Sequence record: PP400785
Length of the DNA: 64,000 bases
Source: Escherichia phage FL08
Reading direction: 5' to 3' (one strand)
The position numbers and the translations under genes are program-made. Shown piece by piece: positions 2,636 to 63,631 of the stretch; the first letter of the stretch is position 1, and each line of letters begins with the position of its first letter. The notes under the pieces are model-generated. The model was not told the DNA's origin. It was given only the letters and a program-made list of their open reading frames with translations, and ran no database searches.

Positions 2636-3319
2636 TTATCGTTTTGTTGGAAGAGATAGAGGATCGCATTCTTCCTCTGATGGAGCGTCTTCAAGACCCA
2701 TAGCATACCGCAAAGCATACTTCATCATCAGGATGTCTTTCGCACAGTCATGAATAGAATCATGTGCAACAAATCCATCTAAAGTTCCCTTTGGAAGAGG
2801 ACACGTGGTCATATCACGAACAAGGAGAAGTGCTTCAATTCTGGTACGAATATCACGCTGATTCCAGAATTTACATGGTTCTAGCTTAAATGTGTCAAGT
2901 TCATTCTCAGAAACACCATTAAGACGTTGAATATCACGAATTAGATCGACTAAAATTGGAAAATCAAACGACATTCCACGGCACCAGCCTTGAGATTTCC
3001 AAGGATCGATATTATGCGAATTGATGTAATCATTAAATTTTGCAATACCATCGATGGTGCTTACATCTTCATCTGATGGCGCAATATTTTTTCGAGCTTC
3101 GGGAGATTGATTCTTCCACCATTCGATAGTGCTTTTAGTAAAAAGACGATGTCCTTTTTGGCTTTTTAAATCAAATTTGATTTTAATGCCGCGTGAAACT
3201 AATTCATCAAATGTTTCAACTACTTCTGGGTTAGGGTCAAAAGCAATTACAGCTAAATCAATAACAGCTGCTTTTTCACCACTTCCCATTGTTTCAAAAT
3301 CTATAATAAAATCAAACAT
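2636..3319 (-). CDS. dexA: exonuclease A (DexA), DEDD-type 3'-5' exonuclease
   Basis: 227 aa, N-terminal FIIDFETMG acidic exonuclease motif; size and position next to dda as in T4. Confidence 0.85.
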   Translation of the reverse strand: MFDFIIDFETMGSGEKAAVIDLAVIAFDPNPEVVETFDELVSRGIKIKFDLKSQKGHRLFTKSTIEWWKNQSPEARKNIAPSDEDVSTIDGIAKFNDYINSHNIDPWKSQGWCRGMSFDFPILVDLIRDIQRLNGVSENELDTFKLEPCKFWNQRDIRTRIEALLLVRDMTTCPLPKGTLDGFVAHDSIHDCAKDILMMKYALRYAMGLEDAPSEEECDPLSLPTKR

Positions 3320-3594
3320 TAAATTTTCCTTGCTAAATCGCGAATTTGACCTACAGTATAGTCTTGAATATAAACTTTATTAATAGGTTCATCAATAAAT
3401 TTTGCCATAGATTCAATATCTTTTTGCATCTCTTCAAGACTGTATATTATCTTTAAAGCTTTTTCGCGAATAGTAATATTTTCAGGACCAGAATTTTTCT
3501 CAATGACAGCTTTAACATTTGTCATAAGAGATTTAAACTGACACCAACTTAATTCAATCATTAATAACCGCCTTATAAAGATGGCTAATTTCAC
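3319..3594 (-). CDS. hypothetical protein (91 aa)
   Basis: small ORF between dexA and dda, packed. Confidence 0.4.
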   Translation of the reverse strand: MKLAIFIRRLLMIELSWCQFKSLMTNVKAVIEKNSGPENITIREKALKIIYSLEEMQKDIESMAKFIDEPINKVYIQDYTVGQIRDLARKI

Positions 3595-3814
3595 CTAAAA
3601 TGTAATCGCTGATTGTAACAGTTTTTACTTCACCACAAAAGAATTCTAACGCAATCAAATCTCGTTCAATTTCTTCCAATTGAAGCATTAACTTGCCTGA
3701 TTCAGTTTTCACATTTTTGCGATTTTTGCTATAAGCTATTTCATAAATTTCGCTTACTTTATCTTGAAGAAGATAAAACTGATCTTTAGTTATTTCCACG
3801 AATAGCTTCCTCAA
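3554..3814 (-). CDS. hypothetical protein (86 aa)
   Basis: small ORF between dexA and dda; start may lie downstream of track start. Confidence 0.4.
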   Translation of the reverse strand: MRKLFVEITKDQFYLLQDKVSEIYEIAYSKNRKNVKTESGKLMLQLEEIERDLIALEFFCGEVKTVTISDYILGEISHLYKAVIND

Positions 3815-3820
3815 ATTTAA

Positions 3821-5140
3821 TCATACATAAAATACATCATAACGACCACGGGTAACACCAACATAAAGAAGTTGTTGGGCCAATTCAGCATCTGCATAAT
3901 GAATGCAAGGCGTATAAATGAAAGCACGGTCTACAGACATACCCTGAGCTTTATGGAATGTTGATGCAGGAAGTGCTTTCACTTTACTAAACTGTGATTT
4001 AGCATCCCAAAAATCACTCCATGGAGCTTTTCCGCCTTTGTTCCAATTTTTATAAGTTTCTGCCGTTTTACCTAAAAATAGGTTAAACTTATACAGTTCT
4101 TCATCAGATGAAATTATTTTAATCTTTTCACGATAATATTCATCATCGCCATAAGTTTCTACTGTTAAATCCCAGTGACGAATTAGATATTCTCCAGAAA
4201 CACCACGAGCTTTAACAAAGGTTGATGTATACTCTGCTTCTATAATACGAACTAATTGTCCGTTATTAAAAATAATTTCTGACACAGGCTTTCCATCAAT
4301 TTTATATGTTTTAATTAATGGTTCCTGCATTACAATAATTTCACCGACAATAAAATCTTTATCAGTTTCAAAAATCTTTTTACGAATAATGCTATTTAAC
4401 TTGTCAACAGATTTATTCGTAAATGCCATTACGCGATTTTCAAACAAATCATCTAGTGATTTGACGATTGAAAAATAATTTACCATAAAATCGCGTAAAG
4501 CGGTATCACCAGTAAATCCACGTACTCCATGCCCGTCAACAACTTTATCATAAATCCACTTACCGTTACGAACGTCAGTAGCTACATCAATAATAGGAGC
4601 ATTACTGCGTTTAACTTCAGTGAGTTCACACTGATAAAAATCTTTGTGTGTAAAGAATGGACTGATATAAGCAGTATTTTCTCCTGGGTCAACAGGTCTA
4701 ATTTGCTTATTATCACCTATTCCAATTATAGTACACCAAGGTGGGATAGTTGAAAGCAAAATTTTGAAGAGCTTTCTATCATACATTGACACTTCGTCGC
4801 AGATTAATACCCTGCATTTAGCTAAATCTGGTACTTCTTTTTGTTCAAAAAGAACGTTTTCTTCATATGTTACTGGGTTAATTTTAAGAATGCTGTGAAT
4901 AGTACTTGCTTCTTTCCCAGATAGTTTTGAAAGAATCTTTTTAGCTGCATGAGTAGGAGCTGCTAAAATAATACCAGTTTCACCTGTAGATATTAAAGCT
5001 TCAATGATGAATTTGGTAAGAGTAGTCTTACCAGTACCAGCAGGTCCATTAATAGTTACATGATGTTTCTTTTCTTTAATAGCCTTCATAACAATGTTAA
5101 AGGCATTTTTCTGGCCTTCGGTCAAATCATCAAATGTCAT
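3821..5140 (-). CDS. dda: Dda DNA helicase (SF1B)
   Basis: 439 aa, Walker A GPAGTGKT, sequence recognisable as T4 Dda; T4 size 439 aa. Confidence 0.9.
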   Translation of the reverse strand: MTFDDLTEGQKNAFNIVMKAIKEKKHHVTINGPAGTGKTTLTKFIIEALISTGETGIILAAPTHAAKKILSKLSGKEASTIHSILKINPVTYEENVLFEQKEVPDLAKCRVLICDEVSMYDRKLFKILLSTIPPWCTIIGIGDNKQIRPVDPGENTAYISPFFTHKDFYQCELTEVKRSNAPIIDVATDVRNGKWIYDKVVDGHGVRGFTGDTALRDFMVNYFSIVKSLDDLFENRVMAFTNKSVDKLNSIIRKKIFETDKDFIVGEIIVMQEPLIKTYKIDGKPVSEIIFNNGQLVRIIEAEYTSTFVKARGVSGEYLIRHWDLTVETYGDDEYYREKIKIISSDEELYKFNLFLGKTAETYKNWNKGGKAPWSDFWDAKSQFSKVKALPASTFHKAQGMSVDRAFIYTPCIHYADAELAQQLLYVGVTRGRYDVFYV

Positions 5141-10591: not shown

Positions 10592-11242
10592 TTATTTTTC
10601 CTTTCTTATGAAGTTTTCTATCATATGTCTATAGCAGATATTAGGATAACCTGCCTTGACAGCTATTTTATTAAATTTTGTGCGCTTAGGTCTATTATTA
10701 TAAACCCATAATTCATAAAGCGCATCATAACTATTCCATATTTCTCCTCGCCTAGGATTTGGTAAACCATATCGAGGTGAATTTTTACCGCTAAATCTTC
10801 CTTTTCGGGCTTTACTCATATTAGCCTTGGCTTCATCGGATATAATTTTACCTTTATGAGCTAGACGCATTTTGGCTTTAGTTTCTTCTGGGGTCTTTTT
10901 GCCTTTAATCCATGACGGCTTGCCATATCTAGGATTATTTTCACCCGAGAAAAGAACAGAGTTTTGGATTTTAAGGGTTTCTATTAATCTACTTGTTAAT
11001 TTAACACCTTTATTATATCGCATTAAATTTACAGCATAATGCAATCCTCTCACATCTGGATATATTTTAGTTAATAATCTATGAGCTATAAAATGCTCAC
11101 GCGCAGTTAACTCAACAAGATTGTTTTTGTCATCTGCTCCTCCTATACATCTAGGAATTATATGATGGCGTTCTTTATATCCGCCAAGATGCCGGCATTT
11201 AGCTTTTGTAATTAAAGCCGAGTAAATTTTTTGGTAATTCAC
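10592..11242 (-). CDS. HNH homing endonuclease (Mob-like)
   Basis: N-terminal HHIIPRCIGG...NLV.LT..EH..AH HNH motif; C-terminal NUMOD-like repeats (NPRYGK, SPRYGL). Confidence 0.8.
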   Translation of the reverse strand: MNYQKIYSALITKAKCRHLGGYKERHHIIPRCIGGADDKNNLVELTAREHFIAHRLLTKIYPDVRGLHYAVNLMRYNKGVKLTSRLIETLKIQNSVLFSGENNPRYGKPSWIKGKKTPEETKAKMRLAHKGKIISDEAKANMSKARKGRFSGKNSPRYGLPNPRRGEIWNSYDALYELWVYNNRPKRTKFNKIAVKAGYPNICYRHMIENFIRKEK

Positions 11243-26092: not shown

Positions 26093-26809
26093 ATGAATTA
26101 TAAACTAATTTATGAAAAGTTAATCTCTAATGCTAAATCTCGAAAACTTGATTGCTATACTGAATCTCATCACATTATACCACGCTGTTTAAATGGCAGC
26201 GATGATGCTTCAAACTTAGTAGATTTAACACCAGAAGAGCACTATGTAGCTCATCAACTTTTAGTAAAAATTTATCCTTCTGAACCAAAATTAGTCTATG
26301 CTGCTAACATGATGACAGTTTCCACGAAATACGCTAAACGCAACAATAAAACTTTCGGTTGGATTCGTCGTAAACTCTGGGAAATAGAAAAGAATAAAGA
26401 ATTCTCCCAAGAGACACGAAAGAAAATGTCTGATGCAGTAGCTAATAAAGCAAGACTAACTTGTCCTCATTGCGGTAAGTCTGGATTAAGCGGGAATATG
26501 AATCGATGGCATTTTGATAACTGCCCGAATCACCCTAATCCTAAAGTTAGACCACCGATGTCTAAAGAACACAGAAATAATATCTCAAACGGGCTTAAAG
26601 CAATCATTCTTGAAGAAACATCCTGCGAATTCTGCGGAATGATAGGCAAGAAATGCGTTATCGCAGCGCATAGAAATTTCTGCAAGAAAAATCCAAATGG
26701 ACGCAAGAAAACTGAAAAGACTGGTACTTGCGTCCATTGTGGTAAAGTTACCACTTTCGGAAATTTATCAAGGTGGCATAATGATAACTGTAAATATAAA
26801 CCTAGCTAA
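26093..26809 (+). CDS. HNH homing endonuclease (Mob-like) with C-terminal Cys-rich zinc-finger repeats
   Basis: Plus strand; N-terminal ESHHIIPRCLNGSDD...NLV.LT.EEH..AH HNH motif shared with the two minus-strand HNH genes; CPHCG / CEFCG / CVHCG repeats. Confidence 0.8.
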   Translation: MNYKLIYEKLISNAKSRKLDCYTESHHIIPRCLNGSDDASNLVDLTPEEHYVAHQLLVKIYPSEPKLVYAANMMTVSTKYAKRNNKTFGWIRRKLWEIEKNKEFSQETRKKMSDAVANKARLTCPHCGKSGLSGNMNRWHFDNCPNHPNPKVRPPMSKEHRNNISNGLKAIILEETSCEFCGMIGKKCVIAAHRNFCKKNPNGRKKTEKTGTCVHCGKVTTFGNLSRWHNDNCKYKPS

Positions 26810-28937: not shown

Positions 28938-29953
28938 TGTGTTGCCTCTACATATAACTGATTTGCATATTGAATAAGTGCTTCACGGTCAGAATCAGTG
29001 ATGTCTGGAATTGCATTAATGTATTCTTCCATCAACGTCTGAAGCGATTGAACTTCAACTTCTTCACTATCATCTGACCCGACAGAGTTATCAATCTTTG
29101 ACACAACTCGTAATGAATGCACAACTTTTTCTAGTTCAGATTCGAACTTCGTCAGATTTTTGTCTACTTCAGTTACTATAACACGTACTGATAGATTTGT
29201 AAAATCTTTATAGTCAATTTTTCCTTTAAATGGATAATGAATTCTACGATGCCAGGTAGTGTTGTTTGGAATAAATTCCATTCGTTCTGTTTCTGTATCA
29301 AACATCCAGAACCCACGAGGGTCATTCTCGTCACCTGCAGTTAGTGTCCATGGTGTCCCAATATACTTGACGTTTGCAGCCTCAGAAATAGTATGGAAGT
29401 GACCAGACCACACTTCTTTATAAGTCTTAAGGAAATCAGGTTCAAGACCATGAGATTTCATTCCTTTATAAAAATAAAATCCGTTCAGTTCCCAGTGACC
29501 AACACAAAAAGAAGCAGATGAAGTTTTGATATGCTCAAGAATTTCACCAGTATTTTCTTCACACATCCAAGGAATTAAATCAATCAAACATCCATCAAAA
29601 TCTACTGTAGTAGGCTTATCATACACTTTAACATTAGGATATTTAGCCAAAAGCTCAGTAGAGGCATTTGGATGCATTACATTTTTGTAGTGGAGATCGT
29701 GATTTCCTACAATAGTATGTAATGTGATTCCAGCGTCATCAAGCATTTGAACTATTTCACGGGCAAACTCCATAGTTTTATGCGTGATTGCTTTTCGCAC
29801 ATCAAAAATATCACCATATTGAATCCATACAGTAATTCCATTTTTCTTAGAATATTCTATCGCTTGCTTAATTCCATCAATTTGAATACCGCGAATCCAC
29901 TCATCATCAGCTTTAACGCCTAAATGCCAATCACCCAAGTTTAGTATTTTCAT
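28934..29953 (-). CDS. 47: recombination endonuclease subunit gp47 (Mre11/SbcD-like)
   Basis: 339 aa (T4 gp47 size); calcineurin-like phosphoesterase motifs GDWHLG, GDIFD, GNHD. Confidence 0.9.
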   Translation of the reverse strand: MKILNLGDWHLGVKADDEWIRGIQIDGIKQAIEYSKKNGITVWIQYGDIFDVRKAITHKTMEFAREIVQMLDDAGITLHTIVGNHDLHYKNVMHPNASTELLAKYPNVKVYDKPTTVDFDGCLIDLIPWMCEENTGEILEHIKTSSASFCVGHWELNGFYFYKGMKSHGLEPDFLKTYKEVWSGHFHTISEAANVKYIGTPWTLTAGDENDPRGFWMFDTETERMEFIPNNTTWHRRIHYPFKGKIDYKDFTNLSVRVIVTEVDKNLTKFESELEKVVHSLRVVSKIDNSVGSDDSEEVEVQSLQTLMEEYINAIPDITDSDREALIQYANQLYVEATQ

Positions 29954-30554
29954 GGTGTCTTTTCCATCCTAATTTAGCTGCTTTTGAAACCAGTTCTTTA
30001 ATTTTTCCTTTTGTCCATTCAGGACCAGGAGGTTCATGACATAACATTTGCTTAACTCCGTTATTATACCATTTTTTACCTTTATTATGTGATGAAGCTT
30101 TAAATTTATTTGACCTTCCTTTTACATAACCTTCTGGAATATAAGGCAAAAAGGCAGATTTTCCTGTTAATGGATCATGTGAATGTATATTTCCTTTACA
30201 ATTATGAGAACCATATAATGGATGATTTTGTCCTTTATTATCTCTTCCAAACGAACCTTTTGGAGCAGCATATGACATATTAAAGAATAATGGATTTTTA
30301 ACTGCATCATGCAATCGTTGATAATATAACTCGCATTTAATAGCTTCTTCACGCGTATCAAATTCAGCTAAAATGCATGAATCAAATAAGTGAGGATTAT
30401 CTGAAAGCTCTTTATTATAAATTTTCTTATACTTTTTAGATAAAACTGAACCATGATATCCAGCTAAATGCCTATCTAAAGACGTAGATCCAATATAAAA
30501 AGGAGGAAGTTTATCTCCACTATATATTGTTAAATAAGTTATATATTTTTTCAT
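29931..30554 (-). CDS. GIY-YIG homing endonuclease (Seg-like)
   Basis: N-terminal YITYLTIY...FYIGST GIY-YIG motif; C-terminal NUMOD-like GxxHPLYG repeats; inserted between 47 and a-gt. Confidence 0.65.
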   Translation of the reverse strand: MKKYITYLTIYSGDKLPPFYIGSTSLDRHLAGYHGSVLSKKYKKIYNKELSDNPHLFDSCILAEFDTREEAIKCELYYQRLHDAVKNPLFFNMSYAAPKGSFGRDNKGQNHPLYGSHNCKGNIHSHDPLTGKSAFLPYIPEGYVKGRSNKFKASSHNKGKKWYNNGVKQMLCHEPPGPEWTKGKIKELVSKAAKLGWKRHHENTKLG

Positions 30555-35971: not shown

Positions 35972-36442
35972 TTAATCATGTTTCCACACCCAATCGGTAT
36001 TTGACCAAAGTCGCTGATTATTTGATCCTCGCCACAGCTTTTTAGTCGGAAGATTTTTCTCATACTTCCCATCAATAATAACATCAACATATTTAAGCAT
36101 TTCTAGTTGTTTAATATCTTCAAACTTATATCCTGTCCACAACCAAATGCTTTTATTGGGATAAAGATTTTTTACTGTTTGAACAATGCAATGAATAACA
36201 TCTCGGTTATCAGGATAGAGAGGGTCTCCTCCAGTTATAGTTAATCCTTCTATATAATCATTATTCAAACATTCAATTAATTGTTCTAGTGTTTCGCCAG
36301 TGAATGGAATACCATTTCTAGCATTCCATGTTGATTTATTATAACACCCTTCACATTTATGCAAACAACCTGTAACGAAAAGAACGACCCTGCAACCAGG
36401 GCCATTCACAAAATCGCAAGGATAAAATCTATCATAATTCAT
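35972..36442 (-). CDS. nrdG: anaerobic ribonucleotide reductase activase NrdG (radical SAM)
   Basis: 156 aa; CLHKCEGC CxxxCxxC radical-SAM cluster motif. Confidence 0.85.
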   Translation of the reverse strand: MNYDRFYPCDFVNGPGCRVVLFVTGCLHKCEGCYNKSTWNARNGIPFTGETLEQLIECLNNDYIEGLTITGGDPLYPDNRDVIHCIVQTVKNLYPNKSIWLWTGYKFEDIKQLEMLKYVDVIIDGKYEKNLPTKKLWRGSNNQRLWSNTDWVWKHD

Positions 36443-38256
36443 TGGTGCTTAACCCTATGCATGATTTCTTTATTTTTACCGAGATTAAATCCGCGTTCGT
36501 TCGGATTTCCCAAATAACCACATGTTCTTCTTATTGTATTCATCTTTTTAGGATCAGTTTCTCCACAAATAGAACAAACAAATCCGTTTTCGGTAGGAGT
36601 CATTTCATGGGTACTTCCACATGTAAAACATTTATCTACTGGCATATTAACACCAAAATAATCTAAATGTTGCGCAGCATAATCCCATACAGCCTCAAGA
36701 CCCTTTAGGTTATTTTTCATATCAGGAAGTTCAACATAAGAAATGTGACCACCTGTCGCAATGAAATGATATGGCGCTTCACGAGAAATCTTTTCAAACG
36801 GAGTAATATTTTCTTCTACTGAAACATGGAAACTATTAGTGTACCAGCCTTTATCGGTAACATCTTTTACACTTCCATATTTTTCTGTATCAAGTTTACA
36901 GAAGCGGTAACAAAGGTTTTCAGCAGGAGTCGAATATAAACTAAAAGCAAATCCGGTTCTTTCAGTCCACTGTTTAAGATGAGCATTCATTTTAGTTAAA
37001 ATTTCTTGTCCAATATCACGACCGACAAGAATATTCAATTCGTGAATACCAATGTATCCTAAAGACACTGAACTTCTACCGTTTTTAAATAACTCAATTA
37101 TATCGTCATCGGGTTTAAGACGAACCCCGAATGCACCTTCTTGGTAAAGAATAGGAGCAACAGTAGCTTTAACTCCTTTTAAGGAACTAATTCTACACAT
37201 CAAAGCTTCAAAACACAAATCCATTCGCTCATTGAATAATTCAGTAAATTTCTGTTCATTGAATTGTGTTCCAATATAAGAATCTAACGCAATACGAGGA
37301 AGATTCAGTGTTACAACACCAAGATTATTACGTCCATCAAGAATTTCATTACCAGTCGAATCTTTCCATACGCTCAAGAAACTACGGCAACCCATTGGAG
37401 AAATAGGAACAGATGAACCAGTGATAGCTTTATTGTTCTTAGCTGAAATAATATCAGGATACATCCTTTTGCTTGCACACTCTAAAGCAAGCTGCTTAAT
37501 ATCATAGTTCGGATCGTCTTTATAAAGATTAACACCTTCTTCAACGAACATAACAAGTTTAGGGAAAATAGGAGTTATCCCGTCACGACCAAGACCTTTA
37601 ATACGATTTTTCAGAATTGCTTTCTGAATCATTCGTTCAGTCCAGTCAGTTCCCGTACCAAATGTAATTGTTACAAAAGGCGTTTGTCCGTTTGAACTAA
37701 AGAGAGTATTTACTTCATATTCATAAGCTTGGAATGCATCGTATACGTCTTTTTCTGTTTTAGATTGAGCATAATTCAACGCATCAGCGATTTGCCATTT
37801 TTCTGCATCCTCAATATGTTTTGCATAGGTGCGTTTAACATAAGGAGAAAGTACTTTATCTACATTCGCAAAAGTTGTTCCGCCATATTGATGGGAAGCA
37901 ACTTGCGCAGTAATTTGTGCCATAATTGCAGTAGCAACACCGATTGATTTAGGAGTTTCAATCTGTGCATTACCGAGCTTAAATCCGTTCTCAAGCATTC
38001 CTTTTAAATCTACTAAACAGCAATTAGTAAAAGGCAATGATATACTGTAATCTAAATCGTGAAAATGAATTAATCCGACATTATGAGCATTTACAATATG
38101 GCTCGGAAGAATACTACAAGCGATATGTTTAGAAACAATACCGGCCATTAAATCTCTTTTTGTTGGAAAGACACGAGAATCTTTGTTGGCATTTTCGGTA
38201 TTTAATTCTTTATCTTTATTTGAAATAAAATTTAAAACATCTTTCTCTAAAGACAT
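36439..38256 (-). CDS. nrdD: anaerobic ribonucleotide reductase NrdD (glycyl radical enzyme), uninterrupted
   Basis: 605 aa continuous ORF; C-terminal glycyl radical motif RRTCGYLG; C-terminal Cys4 zinc ribbon. Confidence 0.9.
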   Translation of the reverse strand: MSLEKDVLNFISNKDKELNTENANKDSRVFPTKRDLMAGIVSKHIACSILPSHIVNAHNVGLIHFHDLDYSISLPFTNCCLVDLKGMLENGFKLGNAQIETPKSIGVATAIMAQITAQVASHQYGGTTFANVDKVLSPYVKRTYAKHIEDAEKWQIADALNYAQSKTEKDVYDAFQAYEYEVNTLFSSNGQTPFVTITFGTGTDWTERMIQKAILKNRIKGLGRDGITPIFPKLVMFVEEGVNLYKDDPNYDIKQLALECASKRMYPDIISAKNNKAITGSSVPISPMGCRSFLSVWKDSTGNEILDGRNNLGVVTLNLPRIALDSYIGTQFNEQKFTELFNERMDLCFEALMCRISSLKGVKATVAPILYQEGAFGVRLKPDDDIIELFKNGRSSVSLGYIGIHELNILVGRDIGQEILTKMNAHLKQWTERTGFAFSLYSTPAENLCYRFCKLDTEKYGSVKDVTDKGWYTNSFHVSVEENITPFEKISREAPYHFIATGGHISYVELPDMKNNLKGLEAVWDYAAQHLDYFGVNMPVDKCFTCGSTHEMTPTENGFVCSICGETDPKKMNTIRRTCGYLGNPNERGFNLGKNKEIMHRVKHQ

Positions 38257-39068
38257 AATTCTAATTTATCCTTTTGAAATTCTTCGTCTAAATATGGGTT
38301 CCAACCCATTTTAAACCTTTTGATGAAATTATCAATTCTAAATTTCGGTAAATTTAACTCCGCAAAAATAGATGATTTACTTTTAAAATCTGGACCTAAA
38401 TAATCATATAAAATTTCTGCGTATTTTAACCATAATATATAAGTACCAGATTTAATTGCTCTAGGAGTTTTCCAAGGTTTTACGCCGTACATCGGATTTC
38501 CACTTCCTTTATGCCTGATAGAAGATGAAATTCCAATTTTAATTTTAGCTTCCTTTGTGTGCGAAAATCCATGATGTGGATTTTCTTTCCAGTATTTTTT
38601 AGAAGCTTCTGATATTTTCTTTCTGGCTAAATTAGTATGATGCTTTCCATAAAATCCATGATTTTTACCTTTATTACGATTTCTTTTAATCATGGTTATT
38701 GATTGCTTTTCTCTAGTTTCTTTAGAAGGAGAAACACCGTACGTTGTAAATTGACCATTAGCATATGCTAAATTAAAATACTCTTTATTCCATATATCTT
38801 TTTCTATATTCTTTTGAAATTCAGCTTCAATGCTAGTTATTTGTTCATCTCCGACTAATTGAAAATATAATATTTCAACTTTCGGTGTTTCTTTCAACAG
38901 AGCTTTTTGAAATTCGGAAGATGACGAAGACGAATAATAAAATTTACCATTTTTATCAATAATATTCGTTCCGTCAAAAGTGCAATTGGTTTTACTTCCA
39001 ATATAATAATATGGCGGGGTTTTAGCATTAATTCTACTAATAAATGATAGTTTATATACTACATTCAT
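38247..39068 (-). CDS. GIY-YIG homing endonuclease (Seg-like), free-standing upstream of nrdD
   Basis: N-terminal VYKLSFISRINAKTPPYYYIGSKTN GIY-YIG motif; NUMOD-like repeats (NHGFYGKHHT, GSGNPMYG). Confidence 0.65.
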   Translation of the reverse strand: MNVVYKLSFISRINAKTPPYYYIGSKTNCTFDGTNIIDKNGKFYYSSSSSSEFQKALLKETPKVEILYFQLVGDEQITSIEAEFQKNIEKDIWNKEYFNLAYANGQFTTYGVSPSKETREKQSITMIKRNRNKGKNHGFYGKHHTNLARKKISEASKKYWKENPHHGFSHTKEAKIKIGISSSIRHKGSGNPMYGVKPWKTPRAIKSGTYILWLKYAEILYDYLGPDFKSKSSIFAELNLPKFRIDNFIKRFKMGWNPYLDEEFQKDKLELCL

Positions 39069-39538
39069 TTTAAACTCTTTCTAAGCTGCTTCTTAAATGA
39101 AGCTATTAACTGTGTTTTGGTGTCAGATTCATTATATTCAAATCCTCTTTGAAGCATCTCGGCCATCATTTCCTCTTTTCCTAAACGAGAAAATTCCTTT
39201 GATTTATCTCCAACAAAGTTAGGGTGAATATTATTTTGGGTGTAATCGGATTTTAAGTAAGTAAGTAAATTTTCTAACCATTCAAGATAATCAACACCTT
39301 GTCCCTTTAAGCCAGAACGATTAAATTTATGCTTCATTTGACCTTCTGCGGCATTGCAGAGATTACAAAGCAATCCACGTACCTTTCCAGCTTTCGGTCC
39401 GTTTAATTCATGGTCATGGTCGAGGTGATTAGCTTGAACATCAGGATTTAGTTCTCGTTGGCAAATTAAGCATTTACCGTTTTGCGCATCATAAAATTTC
39501 TGTTTTTCTTCTTTATATAATTTGCCAGTCAATAACAT
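39065..39538 (-). CDS. 49: endonuclease VII (gp49), Holliday junction resolvase
   Basis: 157 aa (T4 gp49 size); CLICQ ... HLDHDHELNG ... CNLCN zinc/H-N-H-type motif. Confidence 0.85.
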   Translation of the reverse strand: MLLTGKLYKEEKQKFYDAQNGKCLICQRELNPDVQANHLDHDHELNGPKAGKVRGLLCNLCNAAEGQMKHKFNRSGLKGQGVDYLEWLENLLTYLKSDYTQNNIHPNFVGDKSKEFSRLGKEEMMAEMLQRGFEYNESDTKTQLIASFKKQLRKSLK

Positions 39539-46057: not shown

Positions 46058-46777
46058 TTAGGATTCTTCTAAATGTCTTTTCTGAAAAGTTGATACCATA
46101 CTACGATACGGTTCATTTGGATATCCGTGTTTTATAGCTTCCTTTGTAAATTTTCTCCATCCATATTTAGTTTCTTTCCAAAGCTCGAATAATTCATCTT
46201 CATACTGCCATATAGTTAAATGAGAACGCTTTGCAGCTTTAATTCCATTAATATGCTTTTCTTTTACTGCAGGATTGCTTAGTTTCTTTTTAATAATATT
46301 ACTAACTTTTCTAACAAAAACTGGGTCCTTATATCGTTGCGAAGTTTTTATTGAAGTGTTTAATTTAGCTTCCGGCGTGGATGTAACCTCTTTCATCTTT
46401 TTCTTCATATGCTGTATATGATTAGGATTTTTCCATAAATTTATAGAATGCTTTTTGCATTTTATCCTAGTTTCATCTGCAACCTTTCCTCCTTCACCCC
46501 CGTATGACAGGTTAACACAGTTTTTTCCATATTTCAATTTACCTGCCATGATATATAATATTTCAGCTTGTACCATTTTATCATAATTATCAAAAACTTC
46601 TAAAACCGTTTTTGATAATATGTGGTCATTTGACACTTTTACACGTTCTATATAATTTCCACTACCAACATACGAATCATTGATGTTATTAGTTATATGT
46701 CGACCATAATAGTATTTCTTAATACCTGTCTTTAAATTTAATATTTCAGTTTTATAGATAGTAAAATATTTTTTCAT
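46058..46777 (-). CDS. GIY-YIG homing endonuclease (Seg-like)
   Basis: N-terminal IYKTEILNLKTGIKKYYYGRH GIY-YIG motif; basic C-terminal DNA-binding region. Confidence 0.65.
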   Translation of the reverse strand: MKKYFTIYKTEILNLKTGIKKYYYGRHITNNINDSYVGSGNYIERVKVSNDHILSKTVLEVFDNYDKMVQAEILYIMAGKLKYGKNCVNLSYGGEGGKVADETRIKCKKHSINLWKNPNHIQHMKKKMKEVTSTPEAKLNTSIKTSQRYKDPVFVRKVSNIIKKKLSNPAVKEKHINGIKAAKRSHLTIWQYEDELFELWKETKYGWRKFTKEAIKHGYPNEPYRSMVSTFQKRHLEES

Positions 46778-47855: not shown

Positions 47856-48866
47856 TCATTTATAATAACTTCGGTGGTTTTCAAGATAGACCTTCTCAAG
47901 GAAGTCATCCCAGAAACCCATGTCTACTTTTTGCTGCATACCATTCTTAGAAGCTTCAGTAGATGCTGCTTCTACTTGATCGACCACATCTTCCAAAAAC
48001 TCTTGAACTGTTTTAAATGGATGTTTACCCAACTTCACGTCGAGAATAAATGGAGCATCTTGAAGTGGATAGACTAAGTCACCAGTTTTGTAAATTTCCA
48101 ATAGTTGGAGTCCACCACGACAAGCATGACTCAGAGCTTTCCAGTCAATACCTTCGTTGGCTTCGGCCTTACGAGCGCGTTCACCGTATTCAGCATCTAA
48201 TTTGTTCAGTGACTGCTTAAGCTCAATAAGAGAAAGCGTTGTCTGATATTTACGACCCAACACAGTGTAAAACGTCTGTGGGCCTGTTTTCTCATGATTA
48301 TGAAACACCCATTCACAAAATTCGTTTTCTGGAAGACGATGCTTAATATCTTCAACTTTAGTGCGACGTTGCTTAATAGAACCATCTTCTTGGTAATCAA
48401 CCCATTGCTCAGGGATTTGATTAACTACTTTCAATACATCACGTAATGCAGCCAAACGAGAACCCTTGACACCGTATTTAGAAGCTTGCTTGCGGACATA
48501 TCCTAAATATGATTTCATGTTAGTCGTATAAAAACGAGAACGGTTGTCTTGAATAAACTTCCACACATCAGGCAAATCAGATTTAACCACTAGCTCAGGT
48601 GGAGTGTGAAGCATATCTAATGCTACAGTTTCACCATCTGCTGCTAATTTAAAGAAATATTTAAGACTGTATAGTTCATGGTCAATATCATCTTTAGTGT
48701 TTTTAGATGATGTGTTGTTAGTGTTTTTACTCATGTGCTCTTTGACATTTCCGATAAGAATATCGCGAGCAGGAGGAACAAAAATTTCTTTAAAATCTAC
48801 ATCAGATTCTGGGGTAGAAGTTCCATAAAGATGACTACCAAAATAAGACTTAACTACAGTTTTCAT
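47856..48866 (-). CDS. Pol-beta-superfamily nucleotidyltransferase-like protein
   Basis: N-terminal G-S-x10-D-x-D signature (GSHLYGTSTPESDVD); start taken at MKTVVK (track ORF extends to 48902). Confidence 0.5.
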   Translation of the reverse strand: MKTVVKSYFGSHLYGTSTPESDVDFKEIFVPPARDILIGNVKEHMSKNTNNTSSKNTKDDIDHELYSLKYFFKLAADGETVALDMLHTPPELVVKSDLPDVWKFIQDNRSRFYTTNMKSYLGYVRKQASKYGVKGSRLAALRDVLKVVNQIPEQWVDYQEDGSIKQRRTKVEDIKHRLPENEFCEWVFHNHEKTGPQTFYTVLGRKYQTTLSLIELKQSLNKLDAEYGERARKAEANEGIDWKALSHACRGGLQLLEIYKTGDLVYPLQDAPFILDVKLGKHPFKTVQEFLEDVVDQVEAASTEASKNGMQQKVDMGFWDDFLEKVYLENHRSYYK

Positions 48867-49629
48867 TATTAGACCTTTCATAATCTTCATTAAATTGTAC
48901 AATCAATCGATGATAATTAGATTTTGGATATCCTAATTTACTTATATAAGTTCCGAATGACCCACGTTTAGGTCTATTTAATTTAATCCATAACTTATAA
49001 AGTAAGTCATAGTCTTGCCAATGTTTACCAGTTCTTTGTCTAATTTTAGATGAATTTGATTGTTTCTTTTTAGTTTCAAAATTATTCAAAGATTTTTTGA
49101 CTGCAGCAGAGTGTTTTTCTTTAACTCCCGGTCGTTTAAAAGCAGCTTTCACCCCTTTAGATATTTTTTCTTTAACTTCCGGTTTGTTTTGTGCTTCTAA
49201 CTGGGATTCTGAAATTTTAGCCCTTATTTCAGGAAGACTTAATGTTATCGAACGTTTTTCTCTGTATTCATTAGACTTCCACATTTCTTTCATTGTATTA
49301 GAATGTATTTTTGAAAATTTTTCTCTAACTAACTGATATCCTCTTGAAGTTAATTTGAGATTTCTTCCTAAAGAATCTTCTCCAAAATTATAAAATGACC
49401 ACCATGCATAAATTAATCCAGGCGAATTATAATGAATTTTAGCTAAAAGCCAATGGGCTATAAAATGCTCTCTAGCTGTTAATAAAACTAGATTATCAGA
49501 ATCATCATTACCACCAATACAAGATGGAATAATATGATGCTTTTCCGTATAAAAATTTAATTTAGATTTATCTAATTTTCTGAGTTTTCCTTTCTTAATT
49601 AAATTATTATATACTTTAGTATAATTCAT
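48850..49629 (-). CDS. HNH homing endonuclease (Mob-like; mobD position)
   Basis: N-terminal EKHHIIPSCIGGNDD...NLV.LTAREHFIAH HNH motif; Lys-rich C-terminal repeats. Confidence 0.8.
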   Translation of the reverse strand: MNYTKVYNNLIKKGKLRKLDKSKLNFYTEKHHIIPSCIGGNDDSDNLVLLTAREHFIAHWLLAKIHYNSPGLIYAWWSFYNFGEDSLGRNLKLTSRGYQLVREKFSKIHSNTMKEMWKSNEYREKRSITLSLPEIRAKISESQLEAQNKPEVKEKISKGVKAAFKRPGVKEKHSAAVKKSLNNFETKKKQSNSSKIRQRTGKHWQDYDLLYKLWIKLNRPKRGSFGTYISKLGYPKSNYHRLIVQFNEDYERSNNENCS

Positions 49630-63555: not shown

Positions 63556-63631
63556 TGGTCGAGGCAGTAGGGATCGAACCTACGACCCAGGACTTAGAAG
63601 GTCCTTGCTCTTCCTTCTGAGCTATGCCTCG
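63556..63631 (-). tRNA. tRNA-Arg (anticodon TCT)
   Basis: 76-nt cloverleaf on minus strand: 7-bp acceptor CGAGGCA/TGCCTCG, anticodon loop CTTCTAA, T-loop GGTTCGATCC, encoded CCA. Confidence 0.85.

Follow-up and report, generated by a model that had tools for sequence, protein, structure and literature searches.

Escherichia phage FL08 (sequence record PP400785) carries, between gene 49 and nrdD, a free-standing open reading frame (ORF) of 273 codons that is predicted to encode a Seg-type GIY-YIG homing endonuclease. The stretch analysed, referred to here as the window, comprises 64,000 nucleotides (nt) of this record and is of the T4-like (Tevenvirinae) type. Read along the minus strand from 39538 to 35972, the locus consists of gene 49, the 273-codon ORF, nrdD and nrdG (Table 1); the ORF has the same orientation as its neighbours and stands between two genes that are adjacent in related phages. 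The junctions are tight. The ORF starts in an ATGA overlap with the gene 49 stop (39065-39068), it overlaps nrdD by 10 nt, and nrdG abuts nrdD with an overlap of 4 nt, leaving the site occupied elsewhere by mobC or SegH empty in the window. In T4, an ATGA overlap joins gene 49 directly to nrdD, and mobC lies between nrdD and nrdG; T4 nrdD is split by an intron carrying I-TevII (PMC2988022, table). The direct ATGA overlap of gene 49 and nrdD is also found in T2, RB14, ECML-134, JS09 and mar005P1, and gene 49 of the window is about 97% identical to that of T4 up to the ATGA itself. A preliminary description of this DNA had given nrdD as a single uninterrupted ORF of 605 codons, with a Seg-like GIY-YIG gene directly upstream in 10-nt and ATGA overlaps; the ORFs and the T4 alignment bear out both statements.

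Table 1. Features of the gene 49 to nrdG locus, with positions counted from the first nucleotide of the window.
Feature	Position	Strand	Basis or remark
Gene 49 (endonuclease VII)	39065..39538	-	ORF; Pfam Endonuclease_7 5.4e-22, Endonuc-dimeris 1.5e-33; proposed upstream homology arm
Predicted Seg-type GIY-YIG homing endonuclease gene, free-standing, 273 amino acids (aa)	38247..39068	-	ORF; T4 alignment; PHROG 7504
Predicted GIY-YIG catalytic domain, aa 1-105 of the 273-aa ORF	38754..39068	-	
Helical linker with NUMOD3-type DNA-binding repeats, aa 116-195	38484..38723	-	Pfam NUMOD3 5.3e-08
Pfam NUMOD3 match itself, aa 130-153	38610-38681	-	
Endonuclease C-terminal region, aa 196-273	38250..38483	-	Presumed specificity-determining DNA-binding domain
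Putative initiation region for nrdD translation, within the 3'-terminal part of the endonuclease gene	38257..38275	-	AAGGA 13 nt upstream of the nrdD ATG; presumed function
nrdD, anaerobic ribonucleotide reductase large subunit, uninterrupted, 605 codons	36439..38256	-	ORF; Pfam NrdD E 1.9e-170
Endonuclease-linked nrdD 5' allele, nt 1-225, codons 1-75	38032..38256	-	Fixed differences, co-inheritance
Unoccupied position of the group I intron of T4 nrdD (nrdD nt 538|539)	37718..37719	-	
nrdG	35972..36442	-	ORF; Pfam Fer4_12 2.1e-48

The endonuclease gene is inserted exactly after the ATGA that forms the nrdD start in endonuclease-free phages. It opens with the ATG used by T4 nrdD, and the nrdD translation start is thereby taken over; nrdD restarts at a new ATG 10 nt before the endonuclease stop. 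Read from the gene 49 transcript, the endonuclease gene would use the ATG and ribosome-binding region that belong to nrdD in endonuclease-free phages, and nrdD would initiate at its new ATG, served by a Shine-Dalgarno-like sequence within the endonuclease 3' end. No late-promoter TATAAATA occurs within the endonuclease gene, and the number of sigma-70-like matches in it (12, compared with 8.1±2.9 expected) is not above chance. The gene appears to have no recognizable promoter of its own and to be positioned for translational coupling to gene 49. In this it resembles segC, segF and segG, which have been described as cassettes without promoters (PMC2988022).

Residues 1-126 of the protein align with T4 SegG at 40% identity (E 5e-27), and the protein matches PHROG 7504, 'homing endonuclease' (1.2e-33). 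The GIY and YIG motifs can be recognized in an N-terminal beta-hairpin, as VVY5K and Y21-Y22-I-G24, along with a catalytic Glu, E81 (in IEAEF), and a conserved Asn, N99 (in YFNLAYA). E81 and N99 form the only invariant columns of an alignment with 25 database homologues, several distant members of which carry Pfam PF01541; Y5, Y22 and G24 are conserved in at least 90% of the 25. From the motif context, we take E81 and N99 to correspond to I-TevI E75 and N90. An alpha/beta fold of the GIY-YIG type was found, and helices are modelled at residues 116-131, 146-162 and 172-183, the confidence of the model being low in the C-terminal region. The only Pfam match of the 273-aa protein is to NUMOD3, and a search of PDB sequences returned only a chance match to ParB-C (E 0.34). 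Full-length relatives that share the C-terminal region are limited to P0002, P0004 and Mosigvirus SegG-like proteins at the gene 32/59 site. By its sequence, the protein is predicted to be a Seg-family GIY-YIG endonuclease and a paralogue of SegG, in which a NUMOD3 linker joins an N-terminal nuclease domain to a C-terminal DNA-binding region. In the nine copies compared, the ORF is intact throughout and the ratio of nonsynonymous to synonymous substitution rates (dN/dS) is about 0.15, which indicates that the protein is under purifying selection.

Several more specific identities were considered and rejected. The protein is not a SegG orthologue, since its locus is not gene 59/32 and the similarity ends at about residue 126. 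It is not SegH: the nrdD/nrdG site is empty in the window, and the match to LZ2 SegH (26% over 101 aa, E 0.002) covers NUMOD3 only. Identity with I-TevII was discarded for lack of significant sequence similarity, and an intron-encoded endonuclease because the window contains no Rfam intron and the ORF lies between two intact genes, both of which it overlaps. A half-length protein that is 57% identical (P0003) adjoins gene 5 in another T4-like phage, and is uninformative for the gene 49/nrdD locus.

Forty-nine phage records contain the endonuclease gene, with a DNA identity of 96-100%; in every one it stands between gene 49 and nrdD, and in 48 it is full length. For comparison, a T4-type nrdD 5' region is present in about 700 records, and about 1000 match the wider locus. 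Its presence is therefore sporadic (49 of about 700 records), and its occurrence in two genera reflects transfer that is independent of the phage backbone: the carriers include the Tequatrovirus phages AV121, G8, fPS-2 and TadeuszReichstein, and the Mosigvirus phages JK42, ST0, phage 55 and FL18. Between the genera the gene is 96.6-99.6% identical, compared with about 80% for the adjoining gene 49. Most GenBank records already label the ORF 'homing endonuclease'. The JK42 record (MK962756.1, locus 2748-3569) has 'SegG homing endonuclease', with only the N-terminal domain being SegG-like, while several others (among them ST0, G8 and Lutter) have 'hypothetical protein' or no annotation. The JK42 label is a paralogue misnomer, and both 'SegG' and 'hypothetical protein' are misleading as database labels.

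The start of nrdD is inherited with the endonuclease gene. Nine endonuclease-positive and six endonuclease-negative phages were compared over this region; they are separated by 75 fixed nucleotide differences, all in nrdD nt 4-225 and the last at nt 225, with none further into nrdD and none over the final 100 nt or so of gene 49, a stretch that is almost invariant in both genera. Among the first 80 nrdD codons, 28 differ between the two groups in the amino acid encoded and a further 23 only synonymously. The NrdD N-terminus reads MSLEKDVLNFISNKDKEL... in all the positives, whichever the genus, and M[TK]IEKEIEGLI[HY]KTNKDL... in all the negatives. Compared with T4, the window nrdD is strongly diverged over its first 225 nt or so and then 96-100% identical. 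The linkage is strict: a 227-bp nrdD head is present at 95% identity or more in exactly 49 records, 48 with an intact endonuclease gene plus OLB35, and all other records have at most 76% identity to it.

The limits of the block are clearest across genera. Between the window and Mosigvirus JK42, identity is 79.8% in gene 49, 99.6% in the endonuclease gene, 99.1% in nrdD nt 1-225, 94.5% in nrdD nt 226-1818 and 97.7% in nrdG, and the JK42 flanks are back to the local type within about 25 nt of the block. Gene 49 of endonuclease-positive Mosigvirus is of the Mosigvirus type, with 14-20 mismatches to the endonuclease-free JS09 and mar005P1 and 95 to the window, and nrdD nt 226-1818 is 94-99% identical to local endonuclease-free alleles. 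The moving unit, of about 1.04 kb, comprises the endonuclease ORF and nrdD nt 1-225; on one side it adjoins the 3' end of gene 49, which is conserved, and on the other a highly conserved nrdD block that begins at about nt 226. Nucleotides 1-225 of nrdD are a candidate location for the target site, or for its resistant variant. On a wider scale, Tequatrovirus and Mosigvirus are about 80-82% identical in gene 49, 93-95% in the adjoining nrdD and 94-98% in nrdG; repeated endonuclease-driven gene conversion could account for this homogeneity of the nrd genes across genera, relative to gene 49.

A different emphasis had been given in the preliminary description, which set the endonuclease against the group I intron of T4 nrdD, as present 'instead' of it, and took the intron-less nrdD as notable. 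Neither point survives comparison. The T4 intron (1033 nt, with exon 1 ending in T and the intron ending in G) occurs in only 27 records, compared with the roughly 700 that have a T4-type nrdD 5' region, and the phages G8 and fPS-2 carry both intron and endonuclease gene, to which fPS-2 adds a third endonuclease gene where nrdD meets nrdG. It is normal for nrdD to lack the intron, and this is not to be taken as unusual; the contrast between intron and endonuclease is uninformative. An alignment with T4 nrdD, as had been proposed, located the intron insertion site (Table 1); no Rfam match to an intron was found anywhere in the 64-kb window. The endonuclease-linked tract ends 313 nt upstream of this site, so that there is no link between the enzyme and the intron site. 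A separate polymorphism is found there: the intron-bearing alleles (T4, G8 and fPS-2) have six common substitutions within exon-2 positions +8 to +20 (window 37674-37718, nrdD nt 539-583), and intron-less alleles, including that of the window, all have the alternative exon-2 sequence at these six positions. This intron-linked exon cluster lies near the reported I-TevII cut site.

Three records depart from the intact arrangement. OLB35 (MH992122.1, locus 2650-2730, minus strand; flagged UNVERIFIED) is a Mosigvirus with the endonuclease-linked nrdD head and no endonuclease gene. Its NrdD starts with MNVVYKL followed by LYFISNKDKEL, that is, endonuclease codons 1-7 joined in frame to nrdD at about codon 8, an apparent in-frame deletion footprint of the endonuclease gene. 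FL18 (PP400780.1, locus 3117-4608) lacks nrdD: endonuclease codons 1-203 are joined in frame to the last 15 or so nrdD codons, and after the fusion come a gene for SegH, with 97% identity to LZ2 segH, and nrdG. The breakpoints share about 16 nt; here the gene between two endonuclease genes has been deleted. In a metagenomic contig of a more distant T4-like phage (Logan SRR27536177, 1718-4712), gene 49 is followed by two small ORFs, a 222-aa homologue and nrdD. The homologue is 58% identical, lacks the N-terminal GIY-YIG half, and is overlapped at its 3' end by nrdD, an arrangement that suggests an old association of the endonuclease lineage with the nrdD start. The NrdD N-terminus encoded there has several motifs of the endonuclease-linked allele, with only 61% of the first 64 residues shared.

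Among characterized enzymes, the closest relative of the nuclease domain is T4 SegG (gene 32.1), which targets gene 32. The two proteins have the motifs MN(I/V)VY...PPYYYIGSK...EYFNL in common. The segG gene, too, is a free-standing cassette that lacks a promoter and is read together with the gene upstream of it, and SegG is known to drive co-conversion from a cut in the neighbouring gene (PMC2988022). The C-terminal two-thirds differ, with no significant match past residue 126, as does the site (gene 49/nrdD, not gene 59/32) and, presumably, the target. For segF, the summary of Belle et al. (2002) given in PMC2988022 describes a free-standing GIY-YIG gene lying between conserved genes and overlapping the upstream ORF by 11 bp, whose product cuts the adjacent gene of endonuclease-free relatives and which is inherited with flanking markers. 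The 'intronless homing' of SegF is the same concept as that considered here, applied to another protein, site and target; in the present case the behaviour is deduced from genome comparison only.

Other endonucleases are associated with nrdD itself. SegH (in phages U5, LZ2 and others) and T4 mobC are, like the window gene, free-standing endonuclease genes flanking nrdD. SegH likewise combines GIY-YIG and NUMOD3, and likewise accompanies a variant end of nrdD: beside SegH in FL18, the NrdD C-terminus is ...NLGKMKEMVKRVKHA. SegH and mobC are located at the opposite end of the gene, however, at the nrdD/nrdG junction, where LZ2, FL18 and TadeuszReichstein have SegH or SegH-like genes. I-TevII is a further GIY-YIG homing endonuclease of nrdD, and its intron alleles also have linked exon substitutions, but it is encoded within an intron 538 nt into nrdD, whereas the window endonuclease is not intron-encoded; the two elements are independent. 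None of the 15 T4 endonuclease genes lies at the gene 49/nrdD site, which also differs from the sites of SegH and Hef, and a full-text literature search found no paper naming or testing an endonuclease at the gene 49/nrdD junction.

The preliminary description had compared the arrangement to intronless homing, and this reading gains support from genome comparison, in that the gene is sporadic, has a fixed site, and belongs to a block that has crossed genera and includes nrdD nt 1-225. The ORF is probably a free-standing Seg-type endonuclease that spreads by intronless homing on the gene 49/nrdD region. Cuts by Seg enzymes fall tens to thousands of bp away from the gene that encodes the enzyme, and flanking DNA is co-converted when that gene is inherited (PMC2988022). 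On the model of SegF, SegG and SegE, we infer that in a mixed infection the enzyme would cut an endonuclease-free genome in or near the nrdD 5' end; the break would be resected, and would then be repaired from the carrier genome, with the conserved gene 49 3' end as one homology arm and nrdD from about nt 226 as the other. Because the donor nrdD nt 1-225 is about 34% diverged from the recipient, no crossover would be expected inside it, and the endonuclease gene and the nrdD head would always be copied together, over about 1.04 kb. The diverged nrdD segment might also make the carrier resistant to its own enzyme.

A number of observations weigh against this scheme. We infer both the nuclease activity of this protein and its target. 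Neither Pfam GIY-YIG family (PF01541, PF19835) matches the whole protein or residues 1-129 at E<=10, although this is read as a problem of sensitivity, because genuine I-TevII and SegH also fall below the thresholds. A Foldseek match to I-TevI falls short of significance (E 3.4), and no Arg equivalent to I-TevI R27 is evident in the homologue alignment, the SegG-like clade having YIGSK and then a different insert. No donor lineage was found for the nrdD head; beyond the carriers of the endonuclease gene, it is matched best by Klebsiella phages (about 76%) and Tequatrovirus (about 72%). The divergence of the tract, 34% with 28 amino-acid changes, far exceeds what resistance would need; the tract may be donor-lineage DNA that is unable to recombine away, in which case it does not by itself locate the target. 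Resistance of the carrier is in any case no rule, as SegH and Hef reportedly cut their own genomes too. Within the general model, a target inside the tract seems only slightly more likely than one in the shared flanking sequence.

Two versions of the model can be set out on this basis. One, which is conceivable but which we would not favour strongly, has the 225-nt foreign nrdD head, replacing the first 75 codons of the target gene, do several things at once: it would give the carrier resistance, block recombination away from the cut site, and, with the captured start, tie nrdD expression to the endonuclease, so that the gene could be lost only by a rare in-frame deletion like that in OLB35. 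If this were true, three unrelated lineages (this endonuclease, I-TevII and SegH/mobC) would partition a single 1.8-kb gene, and together would explain why nrdD is about 94% identical between the genera and gene 49 about 80%. It is also possible, if doubtful, that the same element encodes an enzyme recognizing a sequence common to both alleles, either in the nrdD block from about nt 226 (PFTNCCLVDLKGMLENGFKLGNAQIETPKS) or in the gene 49 3' end. Carrier and non-carrier would then be cut alike, and the 225 nt would be no determinant of resistance, but a block of heterology that forces copying of the endonuclease gene. Such a shared target would agree with the lack of fixed differences on either side (in nrdD after nt 225, and over the final 100 nt or so of gene 49), with the coincidence of the tract boundary and the start of the conserved nrdD block, and with the typical choice by homing endonucleases of conserved, functionally critical sequences (PMC2988022). 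The self-cutting reported for SegH and Hef would fit it as well. The argument against it is indirect, namely that an enzyme cutting its own genome should be costly to the carrier; and the perfect linkage of the tract is explained equally well by a target lying inside it.

Readings that dispense with homing at this site fare worse. The ORF might be a relic, stranded or domesticated, that has lost the capacity to home and whose distribution arises from ordinary recombination during T-even co-infection and from vertical descent. Decay does occur at the site, in the truncated FL18 copy with its nrdD deletion and in the OLB35 footprint, and the homologue on the distant phage contig has lost the N-terminal half of the nuclease domain. 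We nevertheless consider a relic improbable: all but one of the 49 copies are full length, the catalytic residues are preserved and dN/dS is about 0.15, and without a site-directed process it is difficult to arrive at a cross-genus identity of 99.6% beside a gene 49 at 80%, in a block whose limits are sharp to a few tens of nt. Alternatively, the main target could lie elsewhere in the phage or host genome, at another locus or in the exclusion of competitors, with the position next to nrdD being incidental. PMC13096335 describes SegB-driven amplification of anti-defence loci, an effect of a seg gene beyond its own spread. The insertion site is invariant, however, in 49 records from two genera, the adjacent gene contains the diverged tract, and a decayed relative is found between gene 49 and nrdD in a distant phage as well, so that a main target elsewhere seems very unlikely indeed.

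The window contains several other endonuclease-like genes. A 238-aa HNH-type ORF (26093-26809, plus strand; weak Pfam HNH match, E 0.007) is found between homologues of T4 genes 45.2 and 46, on the strand opposite to all its neighbours and overlapping the gene 46 stop; T4 has 55 nt at this position. On the minus strand are a GIY-YIG ORF between gene 47 and a-gt (29931-30554; Pfam GIY-YIG 3e-4, just under the cut-off), an ORF that looks GIY-YIG-like by eye and has no Pfam match, between homologues of nrdC.9 and nrdC.10 (46058-46777), an ORF with HNH and NUMOD3 near gene 56, in the dam region (10592-11242), and a mobD homologue (48850-49629). T4 segF, segA, mobB, mobC and the nrdD intron are absent. 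The sole Rfam match at gathering level in the window is a tRNA gene (63559-63631, minus strand), at the border of a region that matches the T4 tRNA/segB cluster.

The element is of a known kind, the free-standing GIY-YIG endonucleases that stand beside T-even ribonucleotide reductase genes, and leaves the known mechanism of the class unchanged; this member of it is new and uncharacterized. It adds a third homing-endonuclease insertion site around T-even nrdD, besides the I-TevII intron and the mobC/SegH site. The public genomes make up a natural series, with intact copies in two genera, a truncated copy with loss of nrdD, a footprint and a distant decayed homologue, and they include near-isogenic pairs with and without the gene (ST0/JS09 and JK42/mar005P1). 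The locus is thus a convenient system for the linkage between endonuclease and target, and for the mosaicism of phages across genera.

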